Of a stretch of DNA of 64,000 nt, positions 1,000 through 64,000 are shown piece after piece (the first letter of the stretch is position 1; each line of letters starts with the position of its first letter). Under the pieces are notes generated by a model. That model saw only the letters and a program-made list of their open reading frames with translations. It ran no database searches and was not told the origin of the DNA. Source of the stretch: an uncultured virus (IMG/VR IMGVR_UViG_3300020148_000038) (taxonomy: Duplodnaviria; Heunggongvirae; Uroviricota; Caudoviricetes); the IMG/VR virus record IMGVR_UViG_3300020148_000038; one strand, given 5' to 3'. Position numbers and translations under genes: made by a program.

Positions 1000-1575
1000 A
1001 TGAACTTGAAGAGGACTCTGGTGGTCGATAAGAACGGCCGACAGACTCATGTGTGGAAGAAGGATGAGTCTTCTGCTGTCCATTCGCGCCGAGAATCTTC
1101 ATCGTATCCTGATTTTTACCTCACTCCACCTATCCACGTCGAACCTTATGATGCTGCTGATAAGGAGGCTATCTGGTCTAGTGTTCATCACATTGTTTCT
1201 GATGGTGGTCTTGAATACGAAAAAGTGATGGGACTGCTAGAGAAATATGAGGTTCTTTATGGTACGCCTCATGTGGGGAGAACTCGTGCCGTGTTTGAAA
1301 GAGGTGATGGTTACGTGGTCAAGGTGGCTATTTCCGATGAAGGGTTTTACGCTAACTTGATGGAGGTTCAAGCATCTTCATCTTCCGATAATTCGTATAT
1401 TCCTATGGCTCGCACTTCTTTCGCTGATGAGGACGAATATAATTCAGTCGTTGTTGCTGAGCAAGTTGTTCCCATCAAACTGGATTTCAAGAAGCTTCCT
1501 GATTGGGTACAATCTGTGGATGGCGGGCAGGTTGGTTATACCAGGGATGGGCGTTTAGTTGCCTATGATTTGTAG
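1000..1575 (+). CDS. DKNG-leader protein with protein-kinase-like cargo
   Basis: Starts MNLKRTLVVDKNGRQTHVWKK; GRTRAVF..YVVKVA..NLME and GYTRDGRLVAYD resemble a minimal kinase-like fold; start re-assigned from 973. Confidence 0.65.
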   Translation: MNLKRTLVVDKNGRQTHVWKKDESSAVHSRRESSSYPDFYLTPPIHVEPYDAADKEAIWSSVHHIVSDGGLEYEKVMGLLEKYEVLYGTPHVGRTRAVFERGDGYVVKVAISDEGFYANLMEVQASSSSDNSYIPMARTSFADEDEYNSVVVAEQVVPIKLDFKKLPDWVQSVDGGQVGYTRDGRLVAYDL

Positions 1576-1597
1576 TCGGTGCACCGCATAACGCCAA

Positions 1598-1626
1598 TTG
1601 ACATCAGAACTACAAACTGCTAGTAT
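1598..1626 (+). promoter_or_regulatory. sigmaA-type promoter TTGACA-17-TAGTAT, leaderless
   Basis: 6 nt before ATG 1633. Confidence 0.75.
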
Positions 1627-1632
1627 TGTTAT

Positions 1633-2244
1633 ATGAATATTACTTCCGGGACTCATTATGAGGTTCTTGGTGTCGATTCCAAGGCTACTGCTGAAGACAT
1701 CAAGCGTGCCTACCGGAAGCTTGTTCGTGTTCATCACCCCGACCGGGGAGGCGATTCCTCCATCTTCGTGAAGGTTCAAGAGGCTTACGATACCCTTTCG
1801 TCGCCTGGCAAGAGGATCGTGTACGACCGTAGCCTGGAATTCAACATCAGAAGCGGTTCTGGTTCATCGTCAAGCTCTGCATCTTCTGAGTCTGAGTGGC
1901 GGGATTCCGATGAGTATTATGCCGCAAGGGGTTGGGCGGATGACGAGGAAGATGACGGGTATTACAACTCGCACGACATGAGCGATGAGGAATACGACCG
2001 GGTTCATTTCGGGGCGGATTACGACTATTTCGGTGAGTCGGATGCTGCCTATAATGAGATTATCGACCTGATGGACAATATGCGAAGGGTTCTGCATGTG
2101 GTTCCGGATCTTTTTGATGCCATCGAGAAAGAATTGAATGCCGGGGTGAAGAATTTCGATGACAAAATCAAGATTCTGAGCGAAATCGGCAATCTTTTGG
2201 TCAGGGGCGCACAGGAGATGCGCGGTAGCGCCAACGAACTCTGA
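1633..2244 (+). CDS. DnaJ (J-domain) protein, class III type
   Basis: HYEVLGV..IKRAYRKLVRVHHPDRGG..F..VQEAYDTLS..R..YD; acidic linker follows. Confidence 0.9.
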   Translation: MNITSGTHYEVLGVDSKATAEDIKRAYRKLVRVHHPDRGGDSSIFVKVQEAYDTLSSPGKRIVYDRSLEFNIRSGSGSSSSSASSESEWRDSDEYYAARGWADDEEDDGYYNSHDMSDEEYDRVHFGADYDYFGESDAAYNEIIDLMDNMRRVLHVVPDLFDAIEKELNAGVKNFDDKIKILSEIGNLLVRGAQEMRGSANEL

Positions 2245-2261
2245 GCTATGCTCTACCCTGT

Positions 2262-2282
2262 GTGGTTTGCATGCTGTAACAT
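2262..2282 (+). promoter_or_regulatory. GT-class promoter (GTGG-N11-TAACAT), leaderless
   Basis: 7 nt before ATG 2290. Confidence 0.55.
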
Positions 2283-2289
2283 TTAGGTT

Positions 2290-3630
2290 ATGAATCAGAA
2301 AGTTCCTAAGCACATTGTTGACAAGAATGGTAAACGAACCACCGTATACGTCAATCCTTACGAAGTCGATAAGAGTAAGAAGCGTTCTGTTTCTCAACCG
2401 GCGCAATCTCTTTCTCAGGAGGACGAGTTGAGGAAGCATTATGACGACCTTTTTGATTCATTGGTTGCGAAGGCTCAATTAGACCTCGGTTCCCTTCCTT
2501 TGGATAACGCGGGAATGAGTCTCAGGGATAAATGGGACAGCATGATCGATGCTTTATCCAATGGTTCGAGGCTCACACAAGAGGAAGCTCTGACGAAGCG
2601 TTTGGGTTTGAATTTCGGTCGTCTTCGTGCAGGCCCGTACTTGGTTTGGGAAGATGACACTGATGATATAGAAGATATGAAACTCATCTCTTCACTTGAT
2701 GTTCCGGTTTGGAATGAAGACCGGAAAGCTTTGATTGTTGTTCATACCCGTAATGGTAGTGGTAATAGAGAGTGTTACTGCGAGACGGACGATAAGCATG
2801 ACGAAGGATGCCTCTTTGTCATCAATTCAGAAATGCAGTCACATCCTGATTATGTGAAGGATCAGGATAATTCGTTTGATGGAACTTATGCCGACTTTGC
2901 TTTCGAGATAGATAACACAACTGCTCGGCAGTTGATAATTGATGATGATATCGCTAGTAAGCATATTCGAGCATCCGTGGCGTTGGAGGCTTTTGAAAGG
3001 GGCGACAAAAGCATTGTAGACCTCTTGCCACCCAATCCAAAACGTCAAGAGGCTGTAGAAGAGCTAGATCGTCAAATCTCCGAACTGGGTTCGTCTATTC
3101 GCGTGAAGCTTTCTTCTGGACAAGAATGTGCAGTAAATAATGATTTGGTTCAGGTTTACGATGATGTCTGTGATTTCTTGGAAGGCGGCGGTCGAGGTGA
3201 GGAACCTCAAGAGTCATATATCACTTCGGTTGTATCAAAGACGTTCAAAAACATCTTCAGCGGAAACGCTCATGCTAGAGAAATCATGAAACCGATGAAT
3301 GATTTAAAGTCCGTGCAAGAGGCTGAAGGACTTGTGAAGACGCATGATTATATTGACGCCGAGTTGCAGAAGGATAATCTTCCTGTTGAGTTGAGGACTG
3401 CTCTTGAATATTCAGCCAAGAGTTATGATATTGCAAGTGCTCCGAAGAAGTTTGATGATTACAAGGCGCGATTCGAGAAGTCGTTTGGTGATTTCAAGAG
3501 GGATAGAGACTTGATTCGTGAGGCTGGTAAGAACGCCGACAAGATGGAAGAGTTGAAACGTACTCGGGAAGACATCATTAACAGTTTGAAAGTTCCTGGT
3601 GATTTCAGTTTGAGTAGTCTTGACCTGTGA
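2290..3630 (+). CDS. DKNG-leader protein, unknown cargo
   Basis: MNQKVPKHIVDKNGKRTTVYVNP; 446 aa; HTRNGSGNRECYC motif; helical C-terminus. Confidence 0.85.
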   Translation: MNQKVPKHIVDKNGKRTTVYVNPYEVDKSKKRSVSQPAQSLSQEDELRKHYDDLFDSLVAKAQLDLGSLPLDNAGMSLRDKWDSMIDALSNGSRLTQEEALTKRLGLNFGRLRAGPYLVWEDDTDDIEDMKLISSLDVPVWNEDRKALIVVHTRNGSGNRECYCETDDKHDEGCLFVINSEMQSHPDYVKDQDNSFDGTYADFAFEIDNTTARQLIIDDDIASKHIRASVALEAFERGDKSIVDLLPPNPKRQEAVEELDRQISELGSSIRVKLSSGQECAVNNDLVQVYDDVCDFLEGGGRGEEPQESYITSVVSKTFKNIFSGNAHAREIMKPMNDLKSVQEAEGLVKTHDYIDAELQKDNLPVELRTALEYSAKSYDIASAPKKFDDYKARFEKSFGDFKRDRDLIREAGKNADKMEELKRTREDIINSLKVPGDFSLSSLDL

Positions 3631-6495: not shown

Positions 6496-7254
6496 ATGGG
6501 AAATAGAGATCACCTCATCAGCAAGTCAATCATCGACAAGAACGGGCATCGTAGAACCGTGAGGGTTCGTCCTGATAATATGGGGACTTCTCAGGGCAGA
6601 GCTTCTAAAGTTCCGGTAGCGAAGGCTTCTGGTAGTGTCGTAAAGAGCGCTCATGCAAAAGCCTTTGAGTGGGCTATAGCATACTTAGCGAGCGGAGATT
6701 GGCAGACATTCCCATATGATGTGCAAGATGACTTGATTAGAAGAGCGCGTTCGGGGAAATTGAGTGAAGAAGAGTTAGCTCTTGCGAAGGAGTTGTCTGA
6801 TGTTGGGGCTGACTGGAATCTTCATACGTTCGCTGCTGAAATAGCGGCTGCGGTTGCTTTGCAGAAGTATAACGATACCGGAGTTATAGAAGATGCGTGG
6901 TCTGTTGCTCGGGCAACGGGAACTCCTGCTGAGCTTATCCAAAAGATTTACCAAGACAACAAGGATAATGCCACGTTTGCATATGCTGTAGCATTGAACG
7001 AGTCGGCACCCCAAGAGCTTCTTTTTGAGCTTGCCGGACATAAAGAAGATTATGTGAGGAAGGCAGTAGCTTCTAATCATAGCTCAGATGATGCGACTCT
7101 TTTGAAGTTGGCTTATGACCCTCATAACGGCGTGAGAATGGATGTTGCTGAGAATCCGTTTGCCAGTGTTAAGGTGCTTGAGGTCTTGGAAGCTGAGGGT
7201 GGCTGGATTGGTCAAGAGGCGAGAAGGAATATCGCTTCTCGCGGCAACGATTGA
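6496..7254 (+). CDS. DKNG-leader protein with LRV/HEAT-like helical repeats
   Basis: MGNRDHLISKSIIDKNGHRRTVRVRP; repeats VRKAVASN..L.KLA.D..VR..VAENP. Confidence 0.85.
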   Translation: MGNRDHLISKSIIDKNGHRRTVRVRPDNMGTSQGRASKVPVAKASGSVVKSAHAKAFEWAIAYLASGDWQTFPYDVQDDLIRRARSGKLSEEELALAKELSDVGADWNLHTFAAEIAAAVALQKYNDTGVIEDAWSVARATGTPAELIQKIYQDNKDNATFAYAVALNESAPQELLFELAGHKEDYVRKAVASNHSSDDATLLKLAYDPHNGVRMDVAENPFASVKVLEVLEAEGGWIGQEARRNIASRGND

Positions 7255-9819: not shown

Positions 9820-10290
9820 ATGTCCAATACAGTTCCCACAAGAATCACCCGAGTTGATGGAGTTGAGACTACGGTTCATAAGAAGGTCGAAGAGCCTTTG
9901 CAAGTACCTAATAGCAGAGTAAAGAATATTGTCGGATTCGCCGGACAAGGGGAATCTGGTAAGCAAGAGAAGCTGATTAGCAAATCTGATATTGTTGATA
10001 TCCTCAAAGGAAACCTTTTCCGTCAGAGAGGCAATGGACACCCTGGTGATTCTGAGTATGAGCTATCTCACCCACAGAATCCTAATGTTCGTCTCGTAGC
10101 CCGTACTGAATATAGAGGGGACGAGCCGAATCCTTCTGTAACCCTCTTCAGTGTGTTCGGTAGCAGCTTGATGGACGCAGATTCTTCACATGTCAACACC
10201 CAAATCAGTCTTGATCGAGTTAACAATATATACGTGCTGGATGCTGTCATTAAGGTTGTTGCACAAGAATTTAGTCACAGCGACATCTGA
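9820..10290 (+). CDS. Variant-leader protein (TRVDG type)
   Basis: MSNTVPTRITRVDGVETTVHKK; GTCG-N10-TAATTT at 9781-9800. Confidence 0.8.
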   Translation: MSNTVPTRITRVDGVETTVHKKVEEPLQVPNSRVKNIVGFAGQGESGKQEKLISKSDIVDILKGNLFRQRGNGHPGDSEYELSHPQNPNVRLVARTEYRGDEPNPSVTLFSVFGSSLMDADSSHVNTQISLDRVNNIYVLDAVIKVVAQEFSHSDI

Positions 10291-11028: not shown

Positions 11029-11901
11029 ATGTCCAATACAGTTCCTACAAGAGTCACCCGAGTTGATGGTGTACAGACAACGGTTCACAAGAAGGTTCAG
11101 GAAACCAACGCGAGTTCTGTCGAACGTGTGTCCAAGTTATCTCAAAATTCCTCCGAGAAGAAGGAGAAGAGAACCGTAATCAAGCCGCCGAAATATTTAC
11201 CTCGTGATATGGAAGACGATGTTATTGAGATAGGTGCGTCTAATGAGTCGGGACTACAAACGGTATATCTCAATGGTAGGGATATTGGACGCCTCAGTTC
11301 TGACGAAGAACGACAGTACAGCCAAATTGCCGGTTCTAGGCTGGTTAGCCCCGGTGCGGTTCGTAAGGTTTGGCGCGTAAGTGGTAGTACGCCAGCTATG
11401 GATGGGGTAAATCCTAAATATTACTCCGACCATGATTTTACAAGAGCAAACGCTTTGTACTCTTATGCTCAAGTTTTCAAGAGGTACTTAACTCGTTTTG
11501 AACAGGCGAAAGAGTATATCGAAAACGGTGGTATCTATTTTGATTTAGAGAATGGCAAGTGTATCGTCAGCGGGAAAGCAGAGCTTTCGCTTGATAGTGA
11601 GTACGGCATTAGAGTCGAAGTTCATCGTGATCCTGGGTTTGCGAATTCTCGATTGATAGTTCGTCCTTCACGTGAATCGCAACTCATGGCAACGCTGAAT
11701 TTCGATACTCCAAGCAATGCTGTTGTCTATTTGGGTAGGGATAGCAATTACCAAGGACGATATAAGTCTTTTGTGCTGGATGAAGAATTCAATCTAACTC
11801 TTAATGAAAGAGATAACTTGGACGACATAGATGACACGGAACGAGAGTTTATCGATAAAGTTAGGTTTGTTGTAAAAGAGGCTAATCGACTCAATCAGTG
11901 A
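11029..11901 (+). CDS. Variant-leader protein (TRVDG type)
   Basis: MSNTVPTRVTRVDGVQTTVHKK, nearly identical to the 9820 leader but with unrelated cargo. Confidence 0.85.
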   Translation: MSNTVPTRVTRVDGVQTTVHKKVQETNASSVERVSKLSQNSSEKKEKRTVIKPPKYLPRDMEDDVIEIGASNESGLQTVYLNGRDIGRLSSDEERQYSQIAGSRLVSPGAVRKVWRVSGSTPAMDGVNPKYYSDHDFTRANALYSYAQVFKRYLTRFEQAKEYIENGGIYFDLENGKCIVSGKAELSLDSEYGIRVEVHRDPGFANSRLIVRPSRESQLMATLNFDTPSNAVVYLGRDSNYQGRYKSFVLDEEFNLTLNERDNLDDIDDTEREFIDKVRFVVKEANRLNQ

Positions 11902-13665: not shown

Positions 13666-14292
13666 ATGAAGCGCGATCACCTCATCCCTAAATCAATTGT
13701 TGACAAGAACGGACATAAGCGTACTGTCAAAGTGAAGCCTAATGGCGGCAATGCCATTGTCACCCCAATCAGAGGCGGGTCTGTCCCTCCCACGCCTGCA
13801 CGTGAGGCGGTTTCGTTGGCAGAACGAATCAAAGACAGCGACGTTGAACTTAAGCGCTCTGTTGCCGCTCACCCTTCTTTAAGCGCCGAGATTGCTGAAG
13901 AGCTAGCCAAGAGTTCTGATTTCGACGTACTGAAAAATCTTGCAGAAAACCCTCGCACCCCACTTCACATTTTAGAGGGACTGGCACAAAGAAATACCGT
14001 CAACTTGTCCGTAGTTGATAACCCTAGTTCTTCGCTTCGTATTTTGCGAAGCGTGAAGAATATGAATGCCTTTGATTCAGCTTCGCACGATGCTTTTTCT
14101 GCGATTGAGGATAGATTTCCTCAGTTGAAGGATGCAGAGACAGAAGAGGATAGGGAGCGAATCGCTGGCGATCCTAACGCTACACCCTATGAACTAGCAG
14201 ACTTGTCTCGTGATGCTTCATTAAGGGTTCGTCAGGCTGTTGCTGATAACCCAAGTACGCCAATGTATGTTCTCAACAACATGCCTGCCTAA
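13666..14292 (+). CDS. DKNG-leader protein with LRV/HEAT-like repeats
   Basis: MKRDHLIPKSIVDKNGHKRTVKVKP; LAENPRTP, IAGDPNATP, VADNPSTP repeats; start re-assigned from 13624. Confidence 0.85.
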   Translation: MKRDHLIPKSIVDKNGHKRTVKVKPNGGNAIVTPIRGGSVPPTPAREAVSLAERIKDSDVELKRSVAAHPSLSAEIAEELAKSSDFDVLKNLAENPRTPLHILEGLAQRNTVNLSVVDNPSSSLRILRSVKNMNAFDSASHDAFSAIEDRFPQLKDAETEEDRERIAGDPNATPYELADLSRDASLRVRQAVADNPSTPMYVLNNMPA

Positions 14293-14325: not shown

Positions 14326-15699
14326 ATGAAGACTGCAAACACAATACCCACAACGATTGTGGATAAAAACGGAAAGAAGACAACTGTTCATGTAAACCCT
14401 CATAATTATTTCGCGAACGTTGGACGAACGAGGGGTCAGGTTGCCCCCATAGTTGGTGCGAATAAGTCTATTTCTGATTTGCTTGAAGAGCGTGCTTTAC
14501 TACATCTCAATATCAATCGAAATGTAGAGAAAATGGATAAAGACACGCTAGTCCGTAAAATTGAGCAAAGGAAGCGGTTAGACGAAGCAATAGAAGAGCA
14601 GCTATCTTCTTTATCAAGGGATGATTTCGATGAACCGGCAGAGTTGGATATCGTTATAGATTCTCATTTCGTAGACGAAGGAGTAACAAAACCTCGGTGG
14701 CATGACCAAGATATCGTTGTTGTGGGACAAAAGAGAAAGCTTGGTGAGGTATCCGGTGGGAAACTATTTCACGGTTCTCCGACCAAGATTGATGTTGGTG
14801 GGCTTATCTCCCCACAAGAAGAACGCAACTTCAAACAATCTTCCGATTCCGCGATAAGCATCACTTCTGATGTTGGCATGGCCGCACATTGGGCAAGAGA
14901 GGCTGCTAAGCCCAAGGACGACGAAAACAGCGTCTACATTTATGAGATAGAACCAACCGGCGAAGTTGAGGGCTGGCGTATCGGGTTGGCAAATCAGGGA
15001 AAGAATATCACTCTGATGGAAGGCAGGACACCATCAGGGAAGATTATCGCTGTGCACGAAATAGGGATGTCGGGCGAGGTGAAACTAGAAGACGCTCCCG
15101 CTAATGTTCGCTACGGATACAGCAATCTACTTTCCGACATAGATGAACAACGTGACAAACTGATTGATGATGCCATAGAGGTTTCTCGTGCATGGATTGA
15201 TACATGTTCGTCCGCCGAGATATCTGCACTGAGAGATTACACAAACAGTAGTGATGAATATGCTATCAAAAGTACATCAGGCAAACTTTCTCAGAAATGG
15301 ATTGATTTTGAATCTGCTGTTGACCGCGCACCACGTTTGAAAGAGACTTTCGTCTCCTATACGGGAGTCAATTCGTACTATGTCAACAACATACTTTCTC
15401 AGGCGGAAAACGGTGAGGTAGATATAGATCGCGTTCTTTCCTCTTCGCTTAATCCTGCACAGGTGAATGGTTTTGCTACTTCTGATGAATACGGTCGCAC
15501 ATTGGCTTTAGAGGTTGAGACGAACAAGGGTGCTTTCATGGATATCGTAAGCCATTCTCCGCACGAGATGGAGGTTATGCTGCCCAAAGGTAAATACGAG
15601 GTCATCGAGGTGCTAGAAGATGTCACTTATCTTTGGGGACGAGAGAAGGGTTTTGGGCGAACGATTGATAAGGTTCTTAGACTTCGTTTTGTGGACTAA
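14326..15699 (+). CDS. DKNG-leader protein with two ADP-ribosyltransferase-like domains
   Basis: Leader IPTTIVDKNGKKTTVHVNP; domain 1 LFHGS..ISITS..AAHWA..VYIYEIEPTG (Arr-like); domain 2 ALRDYT..YTG..LSSS..HEMEVMLP (VIP2/Alt-like ExE). Confidence 0.7.
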   Translation: MKTANTIPTTIVDKNGKKTTVHVNPHNYFANVGRTRGQVAPIVGANKSISDLLEERALLHLNINRNVEKMDKDTLVRKIEQRKRLDEAIEEQLSSLSRDDFDEPAELDIVIDSHFVDEGVTKPRWHDQDIVVVGQKRKLGEVSGGKLFHGSPTKIDVGGLISPQEERNFKQSSDSAISITSDVGMAAHWAREAAKPKDDENSVYIYEIEPTGEVEGWRIGLANQGKNITLMEGRTPSGKIIAVHEIGMSGEVKLEDAPANVRYGYSNLLSDIDEQRDKLIDDAIEVSRAWIDTCSSAEISALRDYTNSSDEYAIKSTSGKLSQKWIDFESAVDRAPRLKETFVSYTGVNSYYVNNILSQAENGEVDIDRVLSSSLNPAQVNGFATSDEYGRTLALEVETNKGAFMDIVSHSPHEMEVMLPKGKYEVIEVLEDVTYLWGREKGFGRTIDKVLRLRFVD

Positions 15700-22876: not shown

Positions 22877-23773
22877 CTAATACGCATATGACATTTCATA
22901 TGCGTATTTTAATATGTAATTCACCCTTTCACGATCAACAGTTTCGGGTAACGCTTTAGAAGGTTGAATGGAATCCAGTTCTCGAATAGCGTCTTCTAAA
23001 AATGCGTCAATAGCTTCTCTGGACAACTCGCCTCGGCGGATGCTCTTAATGAAATCCCTTTCGTCTTCAGCTAGCGGAATCAACATTCTTTGTTCGCGGG
23101 CGAGTCTCAACCCATGAAAAGCCAGCTTGGATGATTGGTATGCAGCTTTAGTGTCGAAGCCATATTGTTCAATGAGTTCTGGACGGAGAACTTTCGTTGC
23201 AGCATCCCCGTTCATTCTTCGCTTCTCGGTCATTAGGTGGTGCGCGAATCTTTGAGTGGCATGGTGTGTTACGAATGCGTCACGGTTATCAACTAGTAAT
23301 TGCCCGACATCAGAGATGTATGCATACTTTGGAAGATACAAGGTGGATAGAACATCAGTGTTTCCTGCCGATATGAGACGAGCGAATTTCTTCAACGCGA
23401 ACACCTTACCCTCATCGGTTCCTTCTGGGGTTTTCATGTTCTGGTTTTCTTTGCCTAAAAGGGTATGCTCGTATTGTTCTAGTCCGAACACCACATTGAT
23501 GGGTTCAACAGCCACTCCGATGAAGTCATAATCTGATGCATCGACGTTTGTTCCGTGTGCGGACGAGCCATACTCTCCCAATATAGATAAGCTAGCTCCC
23601 TCTGGGAGTTTTCTGAACGCCTCTTGAAGAATAACGGTAGGGTCGTGCTCTGTCGTGTCAGAGACGGATAGCCTGTTGATTCTTTCCGAACTCAGTTTGT
23701 TTTCTTTGTCGGGGTTAACATATACGGTCGTATGCCTCCCATTTTTATCTACAATCCTTTTAGGTATGGTCAT
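22877..23773 (-). CDS. DKNG-leader protein with pol-beta-superfamily nucleotidyltransferase (RlaP/YcgL-like)
   Basis: MTIPKRIVDKNGRHTTVYVNP; YGSSAHGT..SDYDFIGV motif; GFDTK.A helical C-terminus; ATCT-N11-TAGTAT upstream (23806-23826). Confidence 0.85.
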   Translation of the reverse strand: MTIPKRIVDKNGRHTTVYVNPDKENKLSSERINRLSVSDTTEHDPTVILQEAFRKLPEGASLSILGEYGSSAHGTNVDASDYDFIGVAVEPINVVFGLEQYEHTLLGKENQNMKTPEGTDEGKVFALKKFARLISAGNTDVLSTLYLPKYAYISDVGQLLVDNRDAFVTHHATQRFAHHLMTEKRRMNGDAATKVLRPELIEQYGFDTKAAYQSSKLAFHGLRLAREQRMLIPLAEDERDFIKSIRRGELSREAIDAFLEDAIRELDSIQPSKALPETVDRERVNYILKYAYEMSYAY

Positions 23774-23828: not shown

Positions 23829-25088
23829 TTAGAAGTCGAGACGGTTAATGATGTCTGATTCGGTTTCTTCGCTAGGTGCCTTGTAACCATCACCGTAATG
23901 CTTTGTTTTCCATTCTTTGAATCCCGGTATTGATTCACTCAGGATAGCATCCCAGTCTCTTCTTGAAACTTTAGATGCTAGATTTTCGTCGCTCTCTAAA
24001 ACGCCCTGTTGCGCCTGTGACATATAGAACACTAAAGCCTGGGCCGCTCGGTCATGGTCTTCTGGAGCAAACTCAGCGAAGAAGGAGTTTTTGCTATTTC
24101 CTGAATAAGGGAGTTCTTCTTTATCCCAATTCTCCATACCGTTGATGATGATGGAATCGGTGTTGCGGTGCTCATAAACACTGAAAGAGCGAGTTGATCC
24201 ATTCGGAGTTTTGACTGTATAAACGTTCCCCCATTCACGAGTGTTGTAGAAGGAATCAACTTCCACGTCGGTCAACCCGATGCGTTCCATCTCTTTCTTC
24301 AATTCATTAACAGGGAAAACGGCCGCCATGTAGAACTGATTGTTGACGGCTGGGCTGTCTGGATGTAAGCACCTGAATAGCCTTTCTGATTTGGGGAATA
24401 GGCTTTGGTGGGCATCTCTATCTTTCATTATCTCAGGGATTTCATCTCCGCGAGCAATGCAAGCAATTGTTTCTTGGTAGAAAGGCTCCACGTCTCCATA
24501 GTTGGTTCTTCCTGGATCTGCGTGATGATAGTTCACTCTATCGAATGCAACCTGCTGGGCATCCTCCAAACCATTAAGGTTTGGGTTTGTGACTGGTTCT
24601 GCTGGTTTATGTGTAATGGTTGATGCGAGCTTTCTCGTGACAAGATCTTTCGCTAAGTCGTTCATTACCTTGTCTCTTGCTCGCCAGGCGTCGTCATCAC
24701 GGTTTAGTTTGGCGGGAATCATTCCGGAGATGGCGTCCCACGCTTCAGCTTCATCTTCTGCTGTGAAAGGCTCTCTATCGATGATTGTTGCAATATCTTG
24801 GATAACGGAAAGATTGTGCTCATCTGCTGTAGTCCACGCCTTTTCCCATTTATTGATGTACATCAGGCTTCGGTGGATATCATCCCACTCGATACTATCT
24901 GCCTCTACCAAGGAAACCATAAGGTCTTCTACCTGGGATTCTAATTGTTCTGCCGGGATGCTAGCTAGTTGATGCGCGCTCGGGGCGGGTAAGTTATTGG
25001 ATTGGCGGTTTGCTGGTTTGCGATATACGGTTCTTTGTACACCGTTTTTATCCGTCATGATTGTTGGAATGAGATGGTCGCGTTTCAT
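23829..25088 (-). CDS. DKNG-leader protein, unknown cargo
   Basis: MKRDHLIPTIMTDKNGVQRTVYRKP; start re-assigned from 25142. Confidence 0.85.
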   Translation of the reverse strand: MKRDHLIPTIMTDKNGVQRTVYRKPANRQSNNLPAPSAHQLASIPAEQLESQVEDLMVSLVEADSIEWDDIHRSLMYINKWEKAWTTADEHNLSVIQDIATIIDREPFTAEDEAEAWDAISGMIPAKLNRDDDAWRARDKVMNDLAKDLVTRKLASTITHKPAEPVTNPNLNGLEDAQQVAFDRVNYHHADPGRTNYGDVEPFYQETIACIARGDEIPEIMKDRDAHQSLFPKSERLFRCLHPDSPAVNNQFYMAAVFPVNELKKEMERIGLTDVEVDSFYNTREWGNVYTVKTPNGSTRSFSVYEHRNTDSIIINGMENWDKEELPYSGNSKNSFFAEFAPEDHDRAAQALVFYMSQAQQGVLESDENLASKVSRRDWDAILSESIPGFKEWKTKHYGDGYKAPSEETESDIINRLDF

Positions 25089-41433: not shown

Positions 41434-42237
41434 ATGACAAACAACAGGGTTCCCAAGAAAATAGTTGATAAGAACGGTAAACACACAACCGTCTATGTGA
41501 GCATTAATAAGGATGGCGATCTTTCCATGCGTAGACTTGATGGGCTGCTCGCAAACGCTATGAGCAAGTTCAAAGATAACCCGACTTCCGATGAACTAAC
41601 AGCAAGCACATTTGATAATAGACCTTGGATTACCGCTGATGGAGACAGAGTATCCACTGTTCCTCCTGGGTCGGAAAACAACCCATTCTATACTTTCGCA
41701 CCTCACGATGCATTCAATGTGAGCAGCCAAGAAATCTACCCCGACGAAGAAGTGTATTTCTACAACCCATACAGTAAGGAAATGCAGCTTGGGAATTGGG
41801 TTGAAGCCGATTATGAAGGAATAGATCGCGCCCCCAACGGAAGCAAAATCAAGATCGGCAATTCTTCAATGTCTAAAGCCTTCACCAAATCCAGTGATGA
41901 CGAGTGGACATATATCAGTCCTGTCGGTGACATTCAAAAGGTTCCTTCTTTTTGGTTCAAGAAGAAAATCAATGAAGGCTTCGCTGTTAAGCTTGCTTCC
42001 GCTCACAATGAGCGCACCCTTGTCAACGAATTCGAGTTCGATGGCGTGGGTATTAAACATTACTTCGTCAACAACGATGTCGTAAGGGTAGAAGCTGTCT
42101 TACCTGGCGAGCAGCACGGTATAGCTGCGCATTGGAAGGTGGATGGAAATAGTGAAGTTCTTGATGGTTACAAGGGGACTTTGGCCGATGTTTCTATACG
42201 TCTGGCGCAATACGCTATCGACGGAACAGAATACTAA
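41434..42237 (+). CDS. DKNG-leader protein, unknown cargo
   Basis: MTNNRVPKKIVDKNGKHTTVYVS. Confidence 0.85.
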   Translation: MTNNRVPKKIVDKNGKHTTVYVSINKDGDLSMRRLDGLLANAMSKFKDNPTSDELTASTFDNRPWITADGDRVSTVPPGSENNPFYTFAPHDAFNVSSQEIYPDEEVYFYNPYSKEMQLGNWVEADYEGIDRAPNGSKIKIGNSSMSKAFTKSSDDEWTYISPVGDIQKVPSFWFKKKINEGFAVKLASAHNERTLVNEFEFDGVGIKHYFVNNDVVRVEAVLPGEQHGIAAHWKVDGNSEVLDGYKGTLADVSIRLAQYAIDGTEY

Positions 42238-43882: not shown

Positions 43883-44476
43883 TTATTCTTCCGATTCTTC
43901 TTTCTCTTTTACAACAGCACATTCAATCTTTCGTCCGGTTAACAAAGCGGCCGATACTCTATGGTTTCCGTCCACGATGATGTATTCCTGATTCTTGGTG
44001 AGAAGGATGCGCGGTTCGATTTCCCAACTGAACCCAAAAGGGTCGGAAGGCTTTTTGATGTAATGAGCTATAGCATCTAATCTGATAGATGCCTGTATGG
44101 ATACGAAGTTGTCTTGTGATGGGTCTAGCTCCATATATCTTGGGTTATGGTCTTTCTGCACTTGATATATTTGCGGGTGCAGCTTTCTGGCATCTTCGAA
44201 CTTCATGTAATTTAGTCCGATGTCTTGTGGATGAATAATCAAGTCATTAGCTTCGAGGGCTTCTTTGGCATCTATCCCGATGATAGGGATTTCTCCTTTA
44301 GGTATGTTGTTCAGTCTTATATTCATCTCTTCATTTGTTACAAGAGGATACTTGTCTTTCTTAGGCTTGATGCTAGAGACGCGGCTAACCGATTTCGTAC
44401 TGGAGGCTTCTAAGTTTTTCCATACACGAGTGAGCTTGCCGTTCTTATCAATGATTTCGGTAAGTCTTTTCTCCAT
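43883..44476 (-). CDS. DKNG-leader protein with ParB/Srx-like domain
   Basis: MEKRLTEIIDKNGKLTRVWKN; SIQ..HYI..IVDGNHRVSAALL. Confidence 0.8.
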   Translation of the reverse strand: MEKRLTEIIDKNGKLTRVWKNLEASSTKSVSRVSSIKPKKDKYPLVTNEEMNIRLNNIPKGEIPIIGIDAKEALEANDLIIHPQDIGLNYMKFEDARKLHPQIYQVQKDHNPRYMELDPSQDNFVSIQASIRLDAIAHYIKKPSDPFGFSWEIEPRILLTKNQEYIIVDGNHRVSAALLTGRKIECAVVKEKEESEE

Positions 44477-44617: not shown

Positions 44618-45442
44618 GTGGAACAGCTTGTTAAAACCCCTATTATCGACAAGAACGGGAAACAGACCCATGTTTGGAAGAAGACAGACCTTTCTTCTGG
44701 TGTACAGAGATCTATTCCTGATGTCTCCGTGAAGTCTTCCTTAGAGGAAGACTTAGATGCAAAACTTGCCAAGCATTTCGACATCATCTCTTTTAACGGT
44801 CGTGAGTTCGGGGTTGCTCCTGAAGGGTTCTCTGGTGCGTACTGCCTAACGTGCTTTTCTCCTTTTAGAAAAGAAGAACTCAATGATGAAGTTTTCACCT
44901 GTAATACCTGTCACACAAAGACCTTTTCTGATTTGACGGGAACTGTTATCAGGCACGATGCTCTGAAATTTCTTGACGACCAAGAAGTTCTAAATAGCTC
45001 CTGGTTCCACATCACTACTAAATCAGATTGGTTGACCGAGGTCACTTCTGTTGAGAAGACGCCACTGATTCATCTTGGTACTGAAGAGGCTGCTTATGAC
45101 AGGCTGGAACAACTCAAGAAAAACGCTTCTTCTCCAAAATCCAAGACTTCTCAAACAAAAGACTTCTATCTATATGAAGTTCGTCTCTTACCTCATGCCT
45201 CGATGTCCAACCAATTGGTAGAGGATAACAATGAATTAGCCCCGGAACATGTAGGCGAAATCAATCAATATGCGATGAACTTTAGTAGATCTTTCCAAGA
45301 ACAGATGCTTCGAGATTACGATCTATATGGGACAACTAGGTATTTGAATTCGTATGAAGCGATTGGCTCCATCAGCTTGCTGACTAACCCTATGCATCTG
45401 GAACTTGTGAACGTGATACCCCATGTTGTGTGGTTGCCTTAA
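44618..45442 (+). CDS. DKNG-leader protein, Zn ribbon plus ART-PolyVal-like domain
   Basis: VKTPIIDKNGKQTHVWKK; CLTC..CNTC; WFHIT..HLGT..YLYEV..RYLNSYEAIGSIS. Confidence 0.75.
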   Translation: MEQLVKTPIIDKNGKQTHVWKKTDLSSGVQRSIPDVSVKSSLEEDLDAKLAKHFDIISFNGREFGVAPEGFSGAYCLTCFSPFRKEELNDEVFTCNTCHTKTFSDLTGTVIRHDALKFLDDQEVLNSSWFHITTKSDWLTEVTSVEKTPLIHLGTEEAAYDRLEQLKKNASSPKSKTSQTKDFYLYEVRLLPHASMSNQLVEDNNELAPEHVGEINQYAMNFSRSFQEQMLRDYDLYGTTRYLNSYEAIGSISLLTNPMHLELVNVIPHVVWLP

Positions 45443-45478
45443 TAGATGCTAGAATCTCTTCCAAGGAGAGCTTCTGTT

Positions 45479-45971: not shown

Positions 45972-46934
45972 TTAGAGCAACTGGTAAACTTTACTGAACA
46001 CTTCGTTTCGCAGTCTTACAAAATCACCTTCATTGTATCTGTGCAATACGTTTGAGGTATAGAACTCCAAGTTGCCTTCTGCCGATTCTTCACATTCAAC
46101 TTTGTCGTTGAACAGAATTGCGAAATGTTCGTCATCCCACGAGATGTCGAAACGTGGATCTACGTCCTTAATGGTAGAGGCGAGCTTTTCAATAAACTCT
46201 TCGTCCTCTGGAGCTAGAAACTCGTCGTCGGATAGTGAAAGCTGAATATTAACGTTTTGACTATCAGATTCGCGGTGGAGAGTTACAGTGTCCATCTCAT
46301 GACCATCTCTAAACATTCCGGAGTCGAGACTGTACGTATAAAGGAGGGAATCTCTACCTAGCGAGATAGCGAAATTGTTTGTTTCTCCATCGTTAACGGG
46401 AGACTCGATGATATCCACATAGCCGCTGGTCATAACATATGAATCCATCGGGTTAGCAGCTTTGTTGTGCTCCCCTAATACAAATGCTAGGTGACTGACT
46501 TCGGACTGATCGACGCGGATTGTCGCAACGCCCTTTTCTTGGATGACAAAACTCTCTCCGTCCCAACCGGCACTCAACTTGTCGGTGAATTGCTCTACTG
46601 TGTTGGTGCCAGGAAGTCCCCACTCGGTAGGATATTCAGTAAGTTTAAACGCGAGGGCGCGGGCCTCCCCAACATTAAGGATGACATCTTGAGGGAGGAC
46701 GTTTCCTTCTTTGTCTCTGGTTGACAACAGAACTGCCCTTCCATCACTACCGATAGTGATGCCGTTGAAGTTTGATTCTCCTGCACCGGTCCCGATGGGA
46801 ACAAACATAGACTGAATGTTTCCTAAACGGTCAGTGCTTTTAGCCGATCCGGGAACTTCGATACTTTTCCAAACTCGGGTGAATTTCCCGTTCTTGTCAA
46901 CGATGTTAGTGAGAACCTTTGGGTTGTGTGTCAT
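45972..46934 (-). CDS. DKNG-leader protein, unknown cargo
   Basis: MTHNPKVLTNIVDKNGKFTRVWKS; GTCT-N11-TAAAGT at 46981-46961. Confidence 0.85.
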   Translation of the reverse strand: MTHNPKVLTNIVDKNGKFTRVWKSIEVPGSAKSTDRLGNIQSMFVPIGTGAGESNFNGITIGSDGRAVLLSTRDKEGNVLPQDVILNVGEARALAFKLTEYPTEWGLPGTNTVEQFTDKLSAGWDGESFVIQEKGVATIRVDQSEVSHLAFVLGEHNKAANPMDSYVMTSGYVDIIESPVNDGETNNFAISLGRDSLLYTYSLDSGMFRDGHEMDTVTLHRESDSQNVNIQLSLSDDEFLAPEDEEFIEKLASTIKDVDPRFDISWDDEHFAILFNDKVECEESAEGNLEFYTSNVLHRYNEGDFVRLRNEVFSKVYQLL

Positions 46935-53300: not shown

Positions 53301-54258
53301 ATGTCTAACCTTAAACCTGAAGTTCGAGTCGATAAGAATGGTTACTCGTCACGTCAAAATTGATGGTTCTGGTATCAAGTCGGCTTTACCTGACATAGCA
53401 AAAGCTTTCTCCCATTACAGCGATAGAACCATATTTTCAGATCCAAAAATCAAGGTTGATGATGAAGACTACTTCTTTTTCACCGAAGAGCATGCAGTCG
53501 GAACTTTTAACGAAATCGCTGAAGCCGAGATAGAGAAAATTGTAGATGACGGCAATGTGCCTATCTACGTTCTTACTGGTCGGTCACATTACAATGACGC
53601 TAAGGACTGGCTCTGTAATCAACATTTTGATTTAAAGACAGATGAAAATATCAACGATTTCATGGTGAAGAATGAACGGTTCATTACAGAATTCTTAAAA
53701 CGTGAGTACAAAGCGGATGTCGATTGGAGTGACGATTGGGAATTCCGGTTGGTTTGGGAGTGTGAGTCTGTAGACGGATATTCTGTTTCTGATGCATGGG
53801 ATGAATGGGAGAAGACATCAGCGAGTAGATTCTTTAACGAGTCGGACCCAGGAACATTTGGTTCGCGAAACATGTGGGCTGCTCTGGCTAATGCAATTAA
53901 AGCCAGAGATGAAGTAGCCGATTCAAATTTTGAAGATATCGTTCTTCTTTCCAAGTCTCCGAATATCGACATACTTCGAGCGGTTTCTAAAGATGTCCAC
54001 GCGAGCTTTGGAAAATACGGTCATGTCATACGAGAGAATCTAGTCAATAACAAATCAACACCTTCAGATGTGCTCGCAAACGTGTTCTTCAACGCGCGGG
54101 TAGAGTCGTCTATGCTTGCAGTAGTCAACCATCCGAATCTCACAGAGGAAGATTTGGGTATGATGAGGGGTGCCGATATAAGCGACTCTGTTAGAGACGC
54201 AATTGATGCAAGATTCGCGAAGAATGTTATGAATGGGTTCGGCGGCGAGTCCATATAA
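53301..54258 (+). pseudogene. DKNG-leader protein with a frameshift inside the leader; C-terminal LRV-like repeats
   Basis: GTCT-N11-TATAGT (53257-53277), GAAAGGA RBS, ATG 53301 reads MSNLKPEVRVDKNG then goes out of frame; the main frame continues VTRHVKID. Confidence 0.7.
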
Positions 54259-54263: not shown

Positions 54264-54638
54264 TTAGATGTCCAAGTGATTGATGCCTAATCGGATAAAG
54301 TCTTTATGACACCAGGCTGCTAGCTCATCAAATATTTCCAGCGCCATTTCGCCATTCTTCACATCTGACGGGTCTAATTCTTCACCGTACACTGTGTGAA
54401 TGGATACAACCTCTACCCGGTCTTCGATAGTTTGAAGCTCTAATGTGACGATATCTGGGTTGAGAGATGATATTGCGTCGGACAATCTCTTCAGTTCTTC
54501 TTGGAACTGGTTATCTGATTTTGTAGTGATGGCAGAGACTCTTCCTAGCGATTTATTTGATTTGGACGCTGATCTTTTGTGAACGGTTGTTCTCTTGCCA
54601 TTCTTGTCTATGATTGGAGTTGGTATTAAGTCGTTCAT
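54264..54638 (-). CDS. DKNG-leader protein, small cargo
   Basis: MNDLIPTPIIDKNGKRTTVHKR; GTCA-N11-TACGAT at 54677-54657; start re-assigned from 54797. Confidence 0.85.
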   Translation of the reverse strand: MNDLIPTPIIDKNGKRTTVHKRSASKSNKSLGRVSAITTKSDNQFQEELKRLSDAISSLNPDIVTLELQTIEDRVEVVSIHTVYGEELDPSDVKNGEMALEIFDELAAWCHKDFIRLGINHLDI

Positions 54639-59189: not shown

Positions 59190-59891
59190 ATGAGCAAGCA
59201 GGCTGTTGTCAAGACTACTTCTAATGGACATCAACAGCGTTATTGGATTAATCCAGAGACAACTACTGATTCCAGACTTATTAACCTTCCTCTAACTCGT
59301 GGAAACGATTTAGAGCCGTGGATTACCAGAAAGACTTCCGTTCCATCAAATCTTTTCGATAGGGGCGTCCGATGGCAAGACCTTCCTCCATCTCGGTTGA
59401 AAGATCTAATAGAGGACGAAATGATGTATCTGGCTGACGAATATCCTAGCTATGATGAGTTCTATTACAAAAACGATGGAGTTTTCGACATCGAGATATA
59501 TGGTCAATGTGCGAGTGTCAAGCTGAGAAGTCTAAATAGTGATGTTCGTGGATTGTTCCTGCATGGGCAGTGTGCCGTTCTCGCCTATGCGATGTATGAA
59601 CTAACCGACTCACCAATTATGGTGTTTTCTCAACCCGGAAGTGATGAGTGGTATGGACATGCAGGTTTGGCAACTCGTGATGGTGGATTATTAGACATCA
59701 CGGGATTCAAAACCCCAAAGGAAATCAAAGAGCATTACCCGGAAGTTTCAGATCCGGTTGTGATGTCTGGTGAAGACTTTCTTGCTCTTGTTAAACCAGA
59801 TGGTTCTTCATTTGATGATATAGGTGAATTGGAACGACTTGTCGTGATGGATTTCGCTCAATATGCCCTTCGGGAAGTTGAAGGATTCTAA
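59190..59891 (+). CDS. Variant-leader protein with papain/transglutaminase-like Cys-His-Asp domain
   Basis: MSKQAVVKTTSNGHQQRYWINP; LHGQCAVLAYA..YGHAG..LLDITG. Confidence 0.65.
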   Translation: MSKQAVVKTTSNGHQQRYWINPETTTDSRLINLPLTRGNDLEPWITRKTSVPSNLFDRGVRWQDLPPSRLKDLIEDEMMYLADEYPSYDEFYYKNDGVFDIEIYGQCASVKLRSLNSDVRGLFLHGQCAVLAYAMYELTDSPIMVFSQPGSDEWYGHAGLATRDGGLLDITGFKTPKEIKEHYPEVSDPVVMSGEDFLALVKPDGSSFDDIGELERLVVMDFAQYALREVEGF

Positions 59892-61034: not shown

Positions 61035-61080
61035 AAGAATGAATAGTACCATTTCGGTTCGTGCGAAAGGCTTGCTTGCG

Positions 61081-61980: not shown

Positions 61981-62385
61981 TTGTCTAACAGGGCGCTTCT
62001 GATTGAAATATATCAGGAGCGCCCTTTTGTTTACAAAATCTTTTATTGGTATTATCATTGCCTCGTGTTTGATACGGATGAACATGTCACGAGACAATGG
62101 TTCGCGGTTCGCAAGGCTATCAATGTCGTTGATGCAGAAGACACCGATAGCGCTATCGGTGTCTTAAGAGATATAGTTACAGACTATGACAAAAACCGAA
62201 ACTTCCTTTTCCCTTTTATTAGGATAAGTGAACTAATACCTATCGACCAAAAGGGATTATTCCTCGCCCTGTTCGAAGTCTCTTGGGTGCGTGATGCAGA
62301 TGAAGCCAAACCGTATGTTGATTGGATGCTCAAGGATTACGCCTCTACTCATCAGAAAAAGATACTGACGAATAGTTCAAGCTGA
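61981..62385 (+). CDS. Hypothetical protein (start uncertain)
   Basis: 134-aa ORF downstream of a strong promoter. Confidence 0.55.
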   Translation: MSNRALLIEIYQERPFVYKIFYWYYHCLVFDTDEHVTRQWFAVRKAINVVDAEDTDSAIGVLRDIVTDYDKNRNFLFPFIRISELIPIDQKGLFLALFEVSWVRDADEAKPYVDWMLKDYASTHQKKILTNSSS

Positions 62386-62604
62386 TGATTTGGCTTCGTA
62401 TGAATTAATCCAGTCTTGGCATATCTTCTCTGCTCTATTCTTTCCCCATGCGCGGAATATGAACGAGTATTTTGTGCCGTAAAGAGATATATGATGGGCT
62501 TTTCCTTCATATCTTCCGAACTTCAACTTGCGCACAGAGAAGTCGCTTTGTTCAATGGTTAGCTCGTCCGTCACCGGATAGCTTGCATTTTCTTTCTCTG
62601 TCAC
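62377..62604 (-). CDS. Small hypothetical protein
   Basis: GAAAGG RBS; TAAAAT -10 upstream. Confidence 0.65.
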   Translation of the reverse strand: MTEKENASYPVTDELTIEQSDFSVRKLKFGRYEGKAHHISLYGTKYSFIFRAWGKNRAEKICQDWINSYEAKSSA

Positions 62605-62639
62605 GAATCTGCCTTTCTCTTGTGTTTGATTTTATCAAA

Positions 62640-63326
62640 TCACAAGTTATGTGGCGATTTTACGGACTTCTTTTCCAATCCTTGTTTTACAGCCCGTATC
62701 CAAACATGAGGTTCTGCTATAAACGGGAATGGTGCTCCTGGGTCTATCTGTGAAAAGGTGTAATCAACAACAAAACCGGGCTTGTCGTCTCTAGCCTGAA
62801 GGAAGTTTGCGTAATGAACATTCAGTCCGTATGATTCTTGTTCTTCGGGAGTTAATTCCATGAAAATGACTTTGTTCTCATGGAAGTCCATTTCCAATCT
62901 GTCGATGGCATCATTTATAGACTCTGAGACGATCACACAGTTGGACTTCGCGTTTTCAGGTGATCGTAAATCCGATAGTGAAGAGATCCAATAATATTCT
63001 TCGCCTTGTGCTTCTAGCGCTTCGTGTCCGTACATATCGATGTTATCTACTGGTGGAAGAAAATCCGGGTTCGCATCCATAGTGAATCGTATTTCTTCAA
63101 CTAGCTCGCTCATAACGGATTTTGCAGGTTCAATGTAGTAGGGGTGGAAGTCGTTGTTGAAATCAAGGAGGTCGTTCACATTAATTTCAAATGGTTCGTC
63201 ACTGACTGTAGAAGATTTCGGGTTAACGGTCACGGTCGAAGCTTCACTTTTGGTTTCATCAGATTCCCATCTTCTTGATACTGGATTGAAATGATATCCG
63301 GGTTGGTTAGCTATTGGTTTCGACAT
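62640..63326 (-). CDS. Transglutaminase/papain-like Cys-His-Asp protein
   Basis: SNCVIVSE..HYANF..VVDYTFSQ; GTC-class promoter. Confidence 0.6.
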   Translation of the reverse strand: MSKPIANQPGYHFNPVSRRWESDETKSEASTVTVNPKSSTVSDEPFEINVNDLLDFNNDFHPYYIEPAKSVMSELVEEIRFTMDANPDFLPPVDNIDMYGHEALEAQGEEYYWISSLSDLRSPENAKSNCVIVSESINDAIDRLEMDFHENKVIFMELTPEEQESYGLNVHYANFLQARDDKPGFVVDYTFSQIDPGAPFPFIAEPHVWIRAVKQGLEKKSVKSPHNL

Positions 63327-63332
63327 ATGTAT

Positions 63333-63392
63333 AACTTATCAGCAATATGGGACATTCGAGGGTGGTCGCGTGTCATAGGACAGCATTATGAT
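63333..63392. promoter_or_regulatory. Back-to-back GTC-class promoters
   Basis: Minus: GTCC-N11-TAAGTT (63353-63333), 6 nt before ATG 63326; plus: GTCA-N11-TATGAT (63372-63392). Confidence 0.65.
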
Positions 63393-63413
63393 TACAGCTA
63401 AAAGGAGTCTTAA

Positions 63414-64000
63414 ATGTCAAACACCGTACCACAACAGAAGGTTGTTTCCAAGAATGGAAGGTCGTTCGTCCAAACTTACCATGTCAACCCCAACGCTAAT
63501 GTTTCTTCACAGAAACGCGATCTTTCTGGAATTGCCCCGTCTGTGCCCAACAAAGGGCACAATGAGTCGCATGCAGACCTCGACCATGCATTAGCATTAT
63601 ACAAAAATCGTTCGTATGGTAATGGTCGTGAACAAGACTTTGTTGATGGTTTTAATGCATGTTATCAAAATGGATTTTCCGATCCCGGACAGGCGTTGCG
63701 AGAAGACGGAAACAGAGACGGTAACAGCGCGGGCTATGCAGGCTATTTTACTGGATTCAGGGCCGCGTTGATAGCAAAGCTTGGACAGGAGCAAGGCAAT
63801 TACTTCACCAACGGTGTTTATCTTAAGACGGATGTGTATTCGGGCGGACTTAGCCAAAGCGATAGTGAGCTATACAAAAACAAAGTGCTTCCCTATAACC
63901 CATTCGTGGCGGGAGATGAAGTATTCATTCCTGCTGGAACCCCGTATGAGACTTCAGACCCTTCTAAGCCTGGTATTCAGTATAGCAAACGTGGACAAAG
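63414..64000 (+). CDS. Variant-leader protein (partial), paralogue of 29610-30380
   Basis: Not in the ORF track (runs off the end); AAGGAG RBS; MSNTVPQQKVVSKNGRSFVQTYHVNP..GFRAA..NPFVAGDEVFIPAGT. Confidence 0.8.
   Translation, partial: MSNTVPQQKVVSKNGRSFVQTYHVNPNANVSSQKRDLSGIAPSVPNKGHNESHADLDHALALYKNRSYGNGREQDFVDGFNACYQNGFSDPGQALREDGNRDGNSAGYAGYFTGFRAALIAKLGQEQGNYFTNGVYLKTDVYSGGLSQSDSELYKNKVLPYNPFVAGDEVFIPAGTPYETSDPSKPGIQYSKRGQ

Follow-up and report, generated by a model that had tools for sequence, protein, structure and literature searches.

We describe a short N-terminal leader, recognizable by the residues DKNG, that heads about 20 proteins encoded in a 64,000-nucleotide stretch of DNA (hereafter the window) from an uncultured virus (IMG/VR record IMGVR_UViG_3300020148_000038; Caudoviricetes). 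The leader is a module with a strict N-terminal place; it is widespread, precedes diverse cargos, is selected at the peptide level and is kin to a motif found between the domains of polyvalent proteins. We propose that it is an addressing tag for delivery of proteins together with the element's DNA, mostly by loading into the capsid, a reading that we put forward tentatively and to which we grant somewhat less than an even chance.

A preliminary description of the window, made from its sequence, listed 16 exact and seven variant leader copies. We scanned the window and its relatives with hidden Markov models (HMMs), as that description had suggested, and the shared leader is real. An external HMM, made from 266 leaders with none from the window, which avoids circularity, was scored on 1455 stop-to-stop window frames. 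It recovers 18 open reading frames (ORFs) at E≤1.1e-7, comprising 15 intact DKNG copies and the variants starting at 9820, 11029 and 35742. A six-frame translation of the window contains 18 exact DKNG strings, against a mean of 0.33 and a maximum of 3 in 100 first-order Markov simulations, and 16 of the 18 lie 9-13 residues after a start codon. All sixteen exact-DKNG ORFs are where they had been placed, one of them (53301) as a broken copy. The seven variants divide: the three named above hold, those at 25158 (E=0.002) and 63414 (E=0.045) are marginal, and that at 30380, unmatched at E≤1, is probably a diverged copy because both its variant leader and its cargo are in common with 63414. The claimed TSNG variant at 59190 (59190..59891, plus strand) is not supported as a leader: it is unmatched by the external HMM at E≤1 and gives a partial match at E=0.018 with an HMM built from the window.

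Recognizable cargos (above the Pfam cut-off) are found on 4 of 22 window leader proteins, each protein carrying at most one recognizable Pfam domain type. Coordinates are on the plus strand unless marked minus, and E-values are those of the external HMM unless another family or set is named. LRV repeats occur in proteins of 252 aa (6496..7254; E=9.1e-9; LRV 25.7 bits) and 208 aa (13666..14292; E=1.1e-9; LRV_2 34.7 bits), an Arr-type ADP-ribosyltransferase (ART) domain in a protein of 457 aa (14326..15699; E=5.6e-12; Arr-ms E=1.9e-6, 28.4 bits, cut-off 25) and an RlaP/pol-beta nucleotidyltransferase in one of 298 aa (22877..23773, minus; E=7e-12; RlaP 2.4e-12; phrog_388 7.7e-38). The ADP-ribosyltransferase, nucleotidyltransferase and LRV labels of the preliminary description are thus upheld by Pfam, while its kinase-, ParB- and papain-like labels find no match in the window proteins at E≤0.01; GmrSD_N/ParB-like domains and one weak papain-like toxin match do exist on leader proteins outside the window.

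The other intact DKNG copies head proteins of 191 aa (1000..1575; E=1.7e-10; cargo without Pfam match), 446 aa (2290..3630; E=2.6e-12; cargo unassigned), 419 aa (23829..25088, minus; E=1.1e-7), 189 aa (25869..26438; E=9.9e-11), 257 aa (39590..40363; E=1.9e-19, the best copy), 240 aa (40365..41087; E=1.5e-8; PEVRTDKNG subtype), 267 aa (41434..42237; E=2.9e-12), 197 aa (43883..44476, minus; E=1.7e-11), 274 aa (44618..45442; E=9.7e-13; GTG start), 320 aa (45972..46934, minus; E=5.7e-9) and 124 aa (54264..54638, minus; E=4.8e-17). Among the variants are two of RVDG type, of 156 aa (9820..10290; E=6.2e-12) and 290 aa (11029..11901; E=5.5e-12; a cargo family with 7 metagenome relatives), and one of RKDG type, of 271 aa (35742..36557; E=1.6e-8; its cargo a paralogue of that at 44618). 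The marginal copies are DKRG (25158..25832, 224 aa) and SKNG (63414..64000, reaching past the window end). The probable diverged copy (29610..30380, minus, 256 aa) has TRNG with a two-residue insertion, a visible leader and second motif, and a cargo paralogous to that of 63414.

The broken copy (53301..54258) runs from the leader start to DKNG, meets a stop 7 codons further on, and continues with its second hairpin strand in the frame of the 53242-54258 ORF. We read it as a leader gene in decay; the frame break is consistent with a short deletion, and the ATG at 53338 would give a leader-less protein of 306 aa. The genes starting at 1000, 6496, 13666 and 25088 have in common a T-A-T-T-A-T-like stretch 6-12 bases 5' of the ATG, with no clear Shine-Dalgarno sequence. 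Because three of the four genes share the start M-K-R-D-H-L-I, the stretch may be the mark of a recent sub-family and not a signal.

Past the leader, the window proteins are mostly unrelated, as first described: with the leader removed, 20 of them fall into 18 BLAST clusters. The same diversity extends to 191 cargos from the window, metagenome loci and a 202,737-bp IMG/VR contig (G001), which form 102 clusters, 61 of them singletons. When 16 window copies are compared pairwise, the codons of conserved leader residues differ in 60% of comparisons, and selection therefore acts on the peptide and not on a copied DNA cassette. A single expanded paralogous family, with C-terminal parts diverged beyond recognition and no addressing function, could be imagined from the two window cargo pairs that are still related (29610/63414 and 35742/44618). 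The cargos nevertheless include the distinct known folds of Arr ART, pol-beta nucleotidyltransferase, LRV, ArdC-N, GmrSD_N, NUDIX and CCA-adding enzyme, so that divergence from one ancestor is impossible for them, and we give this explanation scarcely any credence.

The consensus of 285 non-redundant N-termini, M-S-N-L-x-P-T-P-I-V-D-K-N-G-K-x-T-T-V-H-K-K, describes a basic beta-hairpin whose turn Gly lies at residue 13-17 in 268 of the 285. The tag is bipartite. The hairpin is followed by 8-10 polar residues and by a second conserved motif overlooked in the preliminary description, R-[VL]-x-x-[IVL]-x-[AP] (more fully S-R-[VL]-A-x-V-x-A-P), and then by an Ala/Pro/Ser-rich run, which becomes acidic some 30 residues past the hairpin Gly. 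The small/hydrophobic alternation of the second motif is, we assume, reminiscent of peptides that bind HK97-fold shells. The consensus is polar and basic; we agree with the earlier view that the leader is not a Sec or Tat signal, because it has no hydrophobic core.

An AlphaFold2 model of the best copy (39590; alignment of 38 sequences) places strands at residues 7-12 and 18-23, a block with a predicted local distance difference test score (pLDDT) of 93, and puts the Arg motif in a helix at 30-37; the model as a whole has a mean pLDDT of 79.6 and a predicted template modelling score of 0.37. With fair confidence in the model, the N-terminal 40-45 or so residues are predicted to form a small beta-beta-alpha unit. 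No match covering the leader was found in Pfam, PHROGs, NCBIfam or the sequences of the Protein Data Bank (PDB); a PDB profile search returned three chance rows (best E=0.09), and the best Foldseek match of the model had E=1.9. An ESM Atlas search with the same copy reached a best score of 0.76 in clusters labelled mostly Actinomycetota, which we treat as a lead only. Co-folding of four leader copies gave no answer (score 0.00) and says nothing either way on self-association.

Outside the window, the leader is abundant and keeps its position. A profile of 38 leaders searched against 1.84 billion protein representatives matches 1036 proteins at E≤0.001 (35 at E≤1e-10). Among the best 150, the match begins at residue 1 in 130, at residues 2-17 in 15, and internally in five long proteins. 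The preliminary description had allowed that the motif might prove to be a known stand-alone domain lying mostly at internal positions; it corresponds to no known domain and is N-terminal in 145 of the best 150 matches. Two exact-pattern scans of IMG/VR found the leader in one contig only, G001, which carries 18 copies; in 17 of these the Asp lies 9-13 residues from an ATG or GTG. When metagenome contigs of JGI and ENA were scanned for the exact pattern, 108 loci emerged, some on contigs of 100-231 kb, with 178 profile matches (163 distinct); a start codon stands at the profile start in all but 5, and 4 of these 5 are cut by the locus end. A leader protein with an ArdA-like domain sits on a contig of 654,127 bp.

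No N-terminal copy of the exact pattern was found in 185,579 species genomes. The sole match there was judged a chance beta-hairpin and rejected: it is an internal strand close to the C-terminal end of a frame of 521 residues on a Thermoleophilaceae contig (68% GC) from a metagenome-assembled genome. No cultured relative was found in 50,697 phage records, whether searched by megablast of 20 kb, by tblastn of two window proteins, or by tblastn of the 43-residue leader at E≤10. Of sequencing runs, three of DNA and none of RNA are listed as carrying the sequence. Literature searches retrieved no paper carrying the motif strings, which are unmentioned in the text of PMC7824862, PMC5512222 and a 2026 huge-phage preprint.

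The recognizable cargos are, judged by domain similarity, mainly anti-restriction and nucleotide/ADP-ribose enzymes. Those of G001 include a CCA-adding enzyme head with RNA-binding domains, ArdC-N with a polyvalent-type zincin, GmrSD_N, DUF7007 and a weak papain-like toxin match; a NUDIX cargo occurs on a leader protein outside the window and G001. Among 137 further database leader proteins, 131 have no known domain and 6 have a family at E≤1e-4 (GmrSD_N three times, LRV twice, and an ArdA-like match below cut-off). The 120 untagged neighbours of leader genes in metagenome loci include two PARP catalytic domains, an ADP-ribosylglycohydrolase, Macro, an exotoxin-type ART and two NUDIX proteins, as well as RNA ligases, HNH endonucleases, Cas3 and a T4 endonuclease V-type gene. 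This untagged NAD/ADP-ribose conflict toolkit lies at loci L141, L102, L100, L084, L104, L050 and L058; its PARP domains are of eukaryote type, one with WGR.

Many of the leader cargos (ARTs, nucleases, nucleotidyltransferases) would harm the cell that makes them, and the leader could be a regulatory propeptide or degron by which a common protease or chaperone, such as a J-domain protein, holds potentially toxic enzymes in check or controls how long they last. The unstructured Ala/Pro/Ser linker behind the tag and the J-domain proteins encoded in the window and in G001 would suit such a role. Apart from the Arg motif, however, there is no conserved residue pattern of cleavage type, and non-toxic cargos (LRV repeats, ArdA-like) are tagged too; we hold this explanation to be very improbable. 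The J-domain protein was also considered as a receptor for the tag and rejected. The window copy (1633-2244, plus, between two leader genes) and the G001 copy (L027:1698-2465) have the J domain as their sole shared part, and they are poor candidates for one conserved receptor because only this domain is in common.

The five long proteins that break the N-terminal rule among the best 150 matches carry 2-4 internal hairpin copies. One of them, P0083 (1919 aa), combines InPase, ART-PolyVal, PBECR3 and RadC and is a textbook polyvalent protein; its hairpins (383-411, 757-783, 1212-1245 and 1748-1775) each precede a domain block. The internal form, S-K-L-[VI]-K-K-x-I-x-N-K-x-G-K-x-Q-T-V-[WY]-V-x-P, is colinear with the N-terminal form from the Ser onward. 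After P0083 on its contig, a 61-kb IMG/VR sequence, come a DarB-like methylase-helicase (1806 aa) and an 875-aa protein, both with the hairpin about 35 residues from their starts. One 480-aa ORF of the same contig has matches, in this order, to Terminase_6N (E=1.2e-4) and to Terminase_6C (E=2.7e-5). P0024 (770 aa, from a metagenome) has the leader at residue 1 and further copies at 189-219 and 432-451; it looks like three tagged units joined end to end and stands between single-cargo and polyvalent proteins. This arrangement suggests that fusion or fission turns tagged units into polyvalent proteins and back again. The window leader proteins do not themselves have the two or more disparate effector domains that define a polyvalent protein, and they do share a sequence element with P0083. 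The main text of the polyvalent-protein paper (PMC5512222) describes no hairpin or linker motif of this kind, and the kinship seen in the alignments appears, as far as literature searches reach, to be new and unpublished.

Recurrence before each domain is also what would be expected of a docking element, and the leader could be a small binding domain that holds enzymes on one platform inside the cell (the element's DNA or replication factory, RNA, the ribosome or a host hub protein), with no transfer between cells. The module is predicted to fold as a unit and is rich in Lys, His and Arg in and after the hairpin, several cargos act on nucleic acids or nucleotides, and no virion genes were found in the window or G001, all of which speak for docking. 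Binding domains are, however, seldom confined to residue 1, and the leader, with Met-Ser-Asn-Leu conserved, is N-terminal in nearly all of its best matches; it resembles no DNA- or RNA-binding family or structure, and the LRV-repeat and ArdA-like mimic cargos have no evident need for a common platform. We consider such docking unlikely, while far from negligible.

Known systems offer partial precedents for an addressing tag. Polymorphic-toxin trafficking domains (LXG, type VII secretion) and encapsulin cargo-loading peptides, the latter mostly C-terminal, likewise combine one conserved address with many variable payloads; the leader has no Pfam match, and no type VII core genes accompany it besides a weak FtsK/EccC-like ATPase match. 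According to PMC12373910, the N-terminal leader is the sole common part of the T4 internal proteins Ip1-3 and targets them for capsid packaging. The T4 internal proteins (Ip1-3, Alt) resemble the present set, according to PMC12373910 and PMC5512222, in carrying a short leader on otherwise dissimilar proteins, in having anti-restriction proteins and an ADP-ribosyltransferase as cargo, and in gene sets that vary between relatives. They differ in that the present tag has no sequence likeness to theirs, spans 40-45 residues and is predicted to fold; no T4-type head genes were found here, and the numbers are much greater (about 20 per 64 kb; 1036 database proteins). In phage P1, the first 30 residues of DarB suffice to bring a reporter to the capsid, and the authors found no consensus among Dar N-termini, according to PMC9024508. 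The present tag, in contrast, is one conserved family; DarB is a methylase-helicase cargo, and the DarB-like protein beside P0083 bears the hairpin near its N-terminus. Polyvalent proteins, proposed to be injected with DNA (PMC5512222, Iyer et al. 2017), have ART, NUDIX, ArdC-N plus zincin, ParB-like and nuclease domains in common with the leader cargos, whereas the window proteins carry one cargo each instead of many domains per chain. The principle of one leader and many cargos is thus known; what appears to be new is a folded, very large tag family with no described relative.

We propose that a receptor common to the element would recognize the leader module, laid out as a basic beta-hairpin, a short spacer, an Arg-containing short helix, an Ala/Pro/Ser-rich linker and any of many unrelated cargos. 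Recognition would gather an extensive and rapidly changing repertoire of anti-defence and host-modifying enzymes, which would most likely be loaded into the assembling capsid and pass with the DNA into the next cell. A strict N-terminal place, portability, selection at the peptide level and anti-restriction cargos together fit an address tag for proteins needed at DNA entry. From these features we infer that the module serves as a tag and is not itself a working domain, that the capsid is its destination and that the proteins are injected. Delivery gains indirect support from cargos whose kinds are known, or have been proposed, to travel with DNA (ArdC-N plus zincin, ArdA-like, GmrSD_N/ParB-like, ART, NUDIX) and from the hairpin in polyvalent proteins on a contig with a terminase-like ORF.

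Several observations weigh against delivery in the capsid. The search for virion genes covered 64 kb of the window's 494,976-bp contig, the 203-kb G001 and the metagenome neighbours. The window yielded no family of capsid, portal, terminase, sheath or prohead protease (Pfam, 78 ORFs; PHROGs, 77; NCBIfam, 42), and neither did G001 (PHROGs, 145 proteins; Pfam, 122; NCBIfam, 68; six-frame searches with Terminase_6N/6C and Phage_capsid) or the 120 neighbours of leader genes in metagenome loci. The portable N-terminal module of the preliminary description stands; the virion loading that it proposed is not borne out by these genes. The terminase matches next to P0083 (16.8 and 19.5 bits) lie under the Pfam curated cut-offs. 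T4 capsid targeting sequences are about 10 residues long and are removed at a Glu by the prohead protease. No such T4-type site with a conserved Glu is seen in the 285 leaders, and their column frequencies hold no conserved acidic position after the hairpin, Arg being conserved instead. P1 DarB and Ulx and gp15 of Leptospira phage LE1 do not match the leader profile (hmmsearch, DarB at E≤100). No promoter shared upstream of the 23 leader starts is visible by eye, and neither a virion nor late co-expression is evident for leader proteins. The CCA-adding enzyme and RlaP cargos would work equally well if made after entry, and their pathway partners, an RNA ligase (28792-29436) and the HAD_SAK_2 proteins, lack the tag. 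Other apparatus for moving macromolecules is encoded in G001 (PilB/PilT/PilC-like, FtsK-like), including what its gene similarities indicate to be a type IV pilus-like machine, which leaves room for the transfer machine other than a virion that the preliminary description also named.

The element is probably a huge phage, although its identity as a tailed phage could not be shown. IMG/VR classes G001 as viral, and its replication genes comprise a DnaE-type polymerase, clamp, clamp loader, helicases, NAD ligase and SbcCD, alongside RNR, ThyA, dUTPase, NAMPT, PRPP synthase, RtcB and several HNH endonucleases. It also encodes gyrase A, a type I-E-like CRISPR-Cas set, WhiB (L031:4259-4939), DUF2637 (L025:2405-3157), an AAA_10 ATPase of 920 aa (L029:6395-9154) and an FtsK/SpoIIIE-family protein of 1030 aa (L219, 177617-180709) with weak likeness to FtsK, EccC and plasmid TraB. 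The FtsK-family, AAA_10, WhiB and DUF2637 genes hint at an Actinomycetota host and at a DNA translocase that is not a terminase. At L023:4574-12285 follow in a row PilB-like (T2SSE 1e-60), PilT-like and PilC-like (T2SSF 1e-21) genes, a weak Peptidase_A24 match and two pilin-like genes, which belong to the same family as six genes of the window.

Six pilin-like ORFs (522-971 aa, taking the longest ORF) lie among the leader genes of the window, all on the plus strand, at 7373-9775, 15940-18855, 18831-21416, 27181-28770, 32382-34130 and 49183-50751. They have a near-identical N-terminal segment with an invariant hydrophobic helix (A-E-N-S-I-M-Q-T-I..A-V-S-A-I), a head of about 130 residues with two Cys, and then unrelated C-termini, one with PKD and BNR_2; their true starts are probably the Met 7-9 residues before A-E-N-S. 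AlphaFold2 models the N-terminus as a 57-residue helix (7-63) followed by a sheet (pLDDT 63), and the top four Foldseek rows are Thermus type IV pilins, non-significant at E≥0.24. The canonical type IV pilin motif G-F-T-L-I-E is not present in this family, which looks like a second set of proteins with one N-terminus and many C-termini, pilin-like with interchangeable adhesin ends. Among the papers listed by a literature search, none links huge phages with pilins, and a second IMG/VR contig with pilin-like genes (41 kb) has no leader, no Terminase_6N and no Phage_capsid.

These genes bring in a route without virions, in which the element would be, or would also behave as, a giant transmissible element. 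The tag would be a substrate signal, read by an FtsK-like or AAA_10-type translocation ATPase or by some other export machine that hands escort proteins on to a recipient cell. Type IV pili are not known to export cytoplasmic proteins that lack a signal peptide, which counts against this route. The pilus and translocase genes of G001, its weak prepilin-peptidase match, the six variable pilin-like genes of the window and the failure to find a terminase or capsid all argue for it, as does the transfer of ArdC-type proteins in conjugation reported in the accessible part of PMC5512222. No relaxase, VirB4 or coupling-protein equivalog is significant in G001, however (Replic_Relax, E=4e-4, is below cut-off), its gene content is phage-like (polymerase, RNR, ThyA, HNH and others, with a T4 endonuclease V-type gene near leader genes) and, unlike typical plasmids and integrative elements, the leader has no N-terminal copy in the species genomes searched. 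We rate this route as improbable. A bolder version, in our view a long shot, would take the 200-650-kb elements not as ordinary tailed phages but as new giant mobile elements with their own type IV pilus-like apparatus, interchangeable adhesin-pilins and an FtsK-like translocase, the DKNG module as the substrate signal of a hitherto unknown route by which dozens of escort effectors enter the recipient cell, and the polyvalent proteins of smaller phages as end-to-end fusions of tagged units.

If the leader is indeed an address for delivery with DNA, it provides a sequence handle that picks more than 1000 effector families from raw metagenomes, a catalogue of candidate anti-defence and host-takeover effectors. 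The T4 principle would then work at a far larger scale, with a folded and evolutionarily mobile header, and polyvalent proteins would originate as fusions of tagged units (P0024, P0083). Given a cultivable member, a portable tag of 45 residues could be a practical tool for loading foreign proteins. Should it prove to be a tether or an export signal instead, the leader would still define a new, very widespread small domain.

The window has a coding fraction of 92% (table 11), a GC content of 42-47% and 0 tRNAs, and the majority of its 77 ORFs could be assigned to neither a Pfam nor a PHROG family. Besides the J-domain protein, named genes are a PKD/BNR protein, a GMP-reductase/IMPDH-type enzyme (42794-43807, minus; E=1.3e-65) and an RNA-repair set made up of the RNA ligase (minus strand), RlaP and two HAD_SAK_2 phosphatases (45446-45970, plus; 60510-61307, minus), in which the leader stands on RlaP only. 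The CRISPR-Cas genes of G001 (Cas3, Cse1, Cas7-type CT1975, Cas5, Cas6e) lie at L027:14277-L028:1757 and L222, and Cas3 fragments adjoin leader genes in two metagenome loci (L092 and L105).

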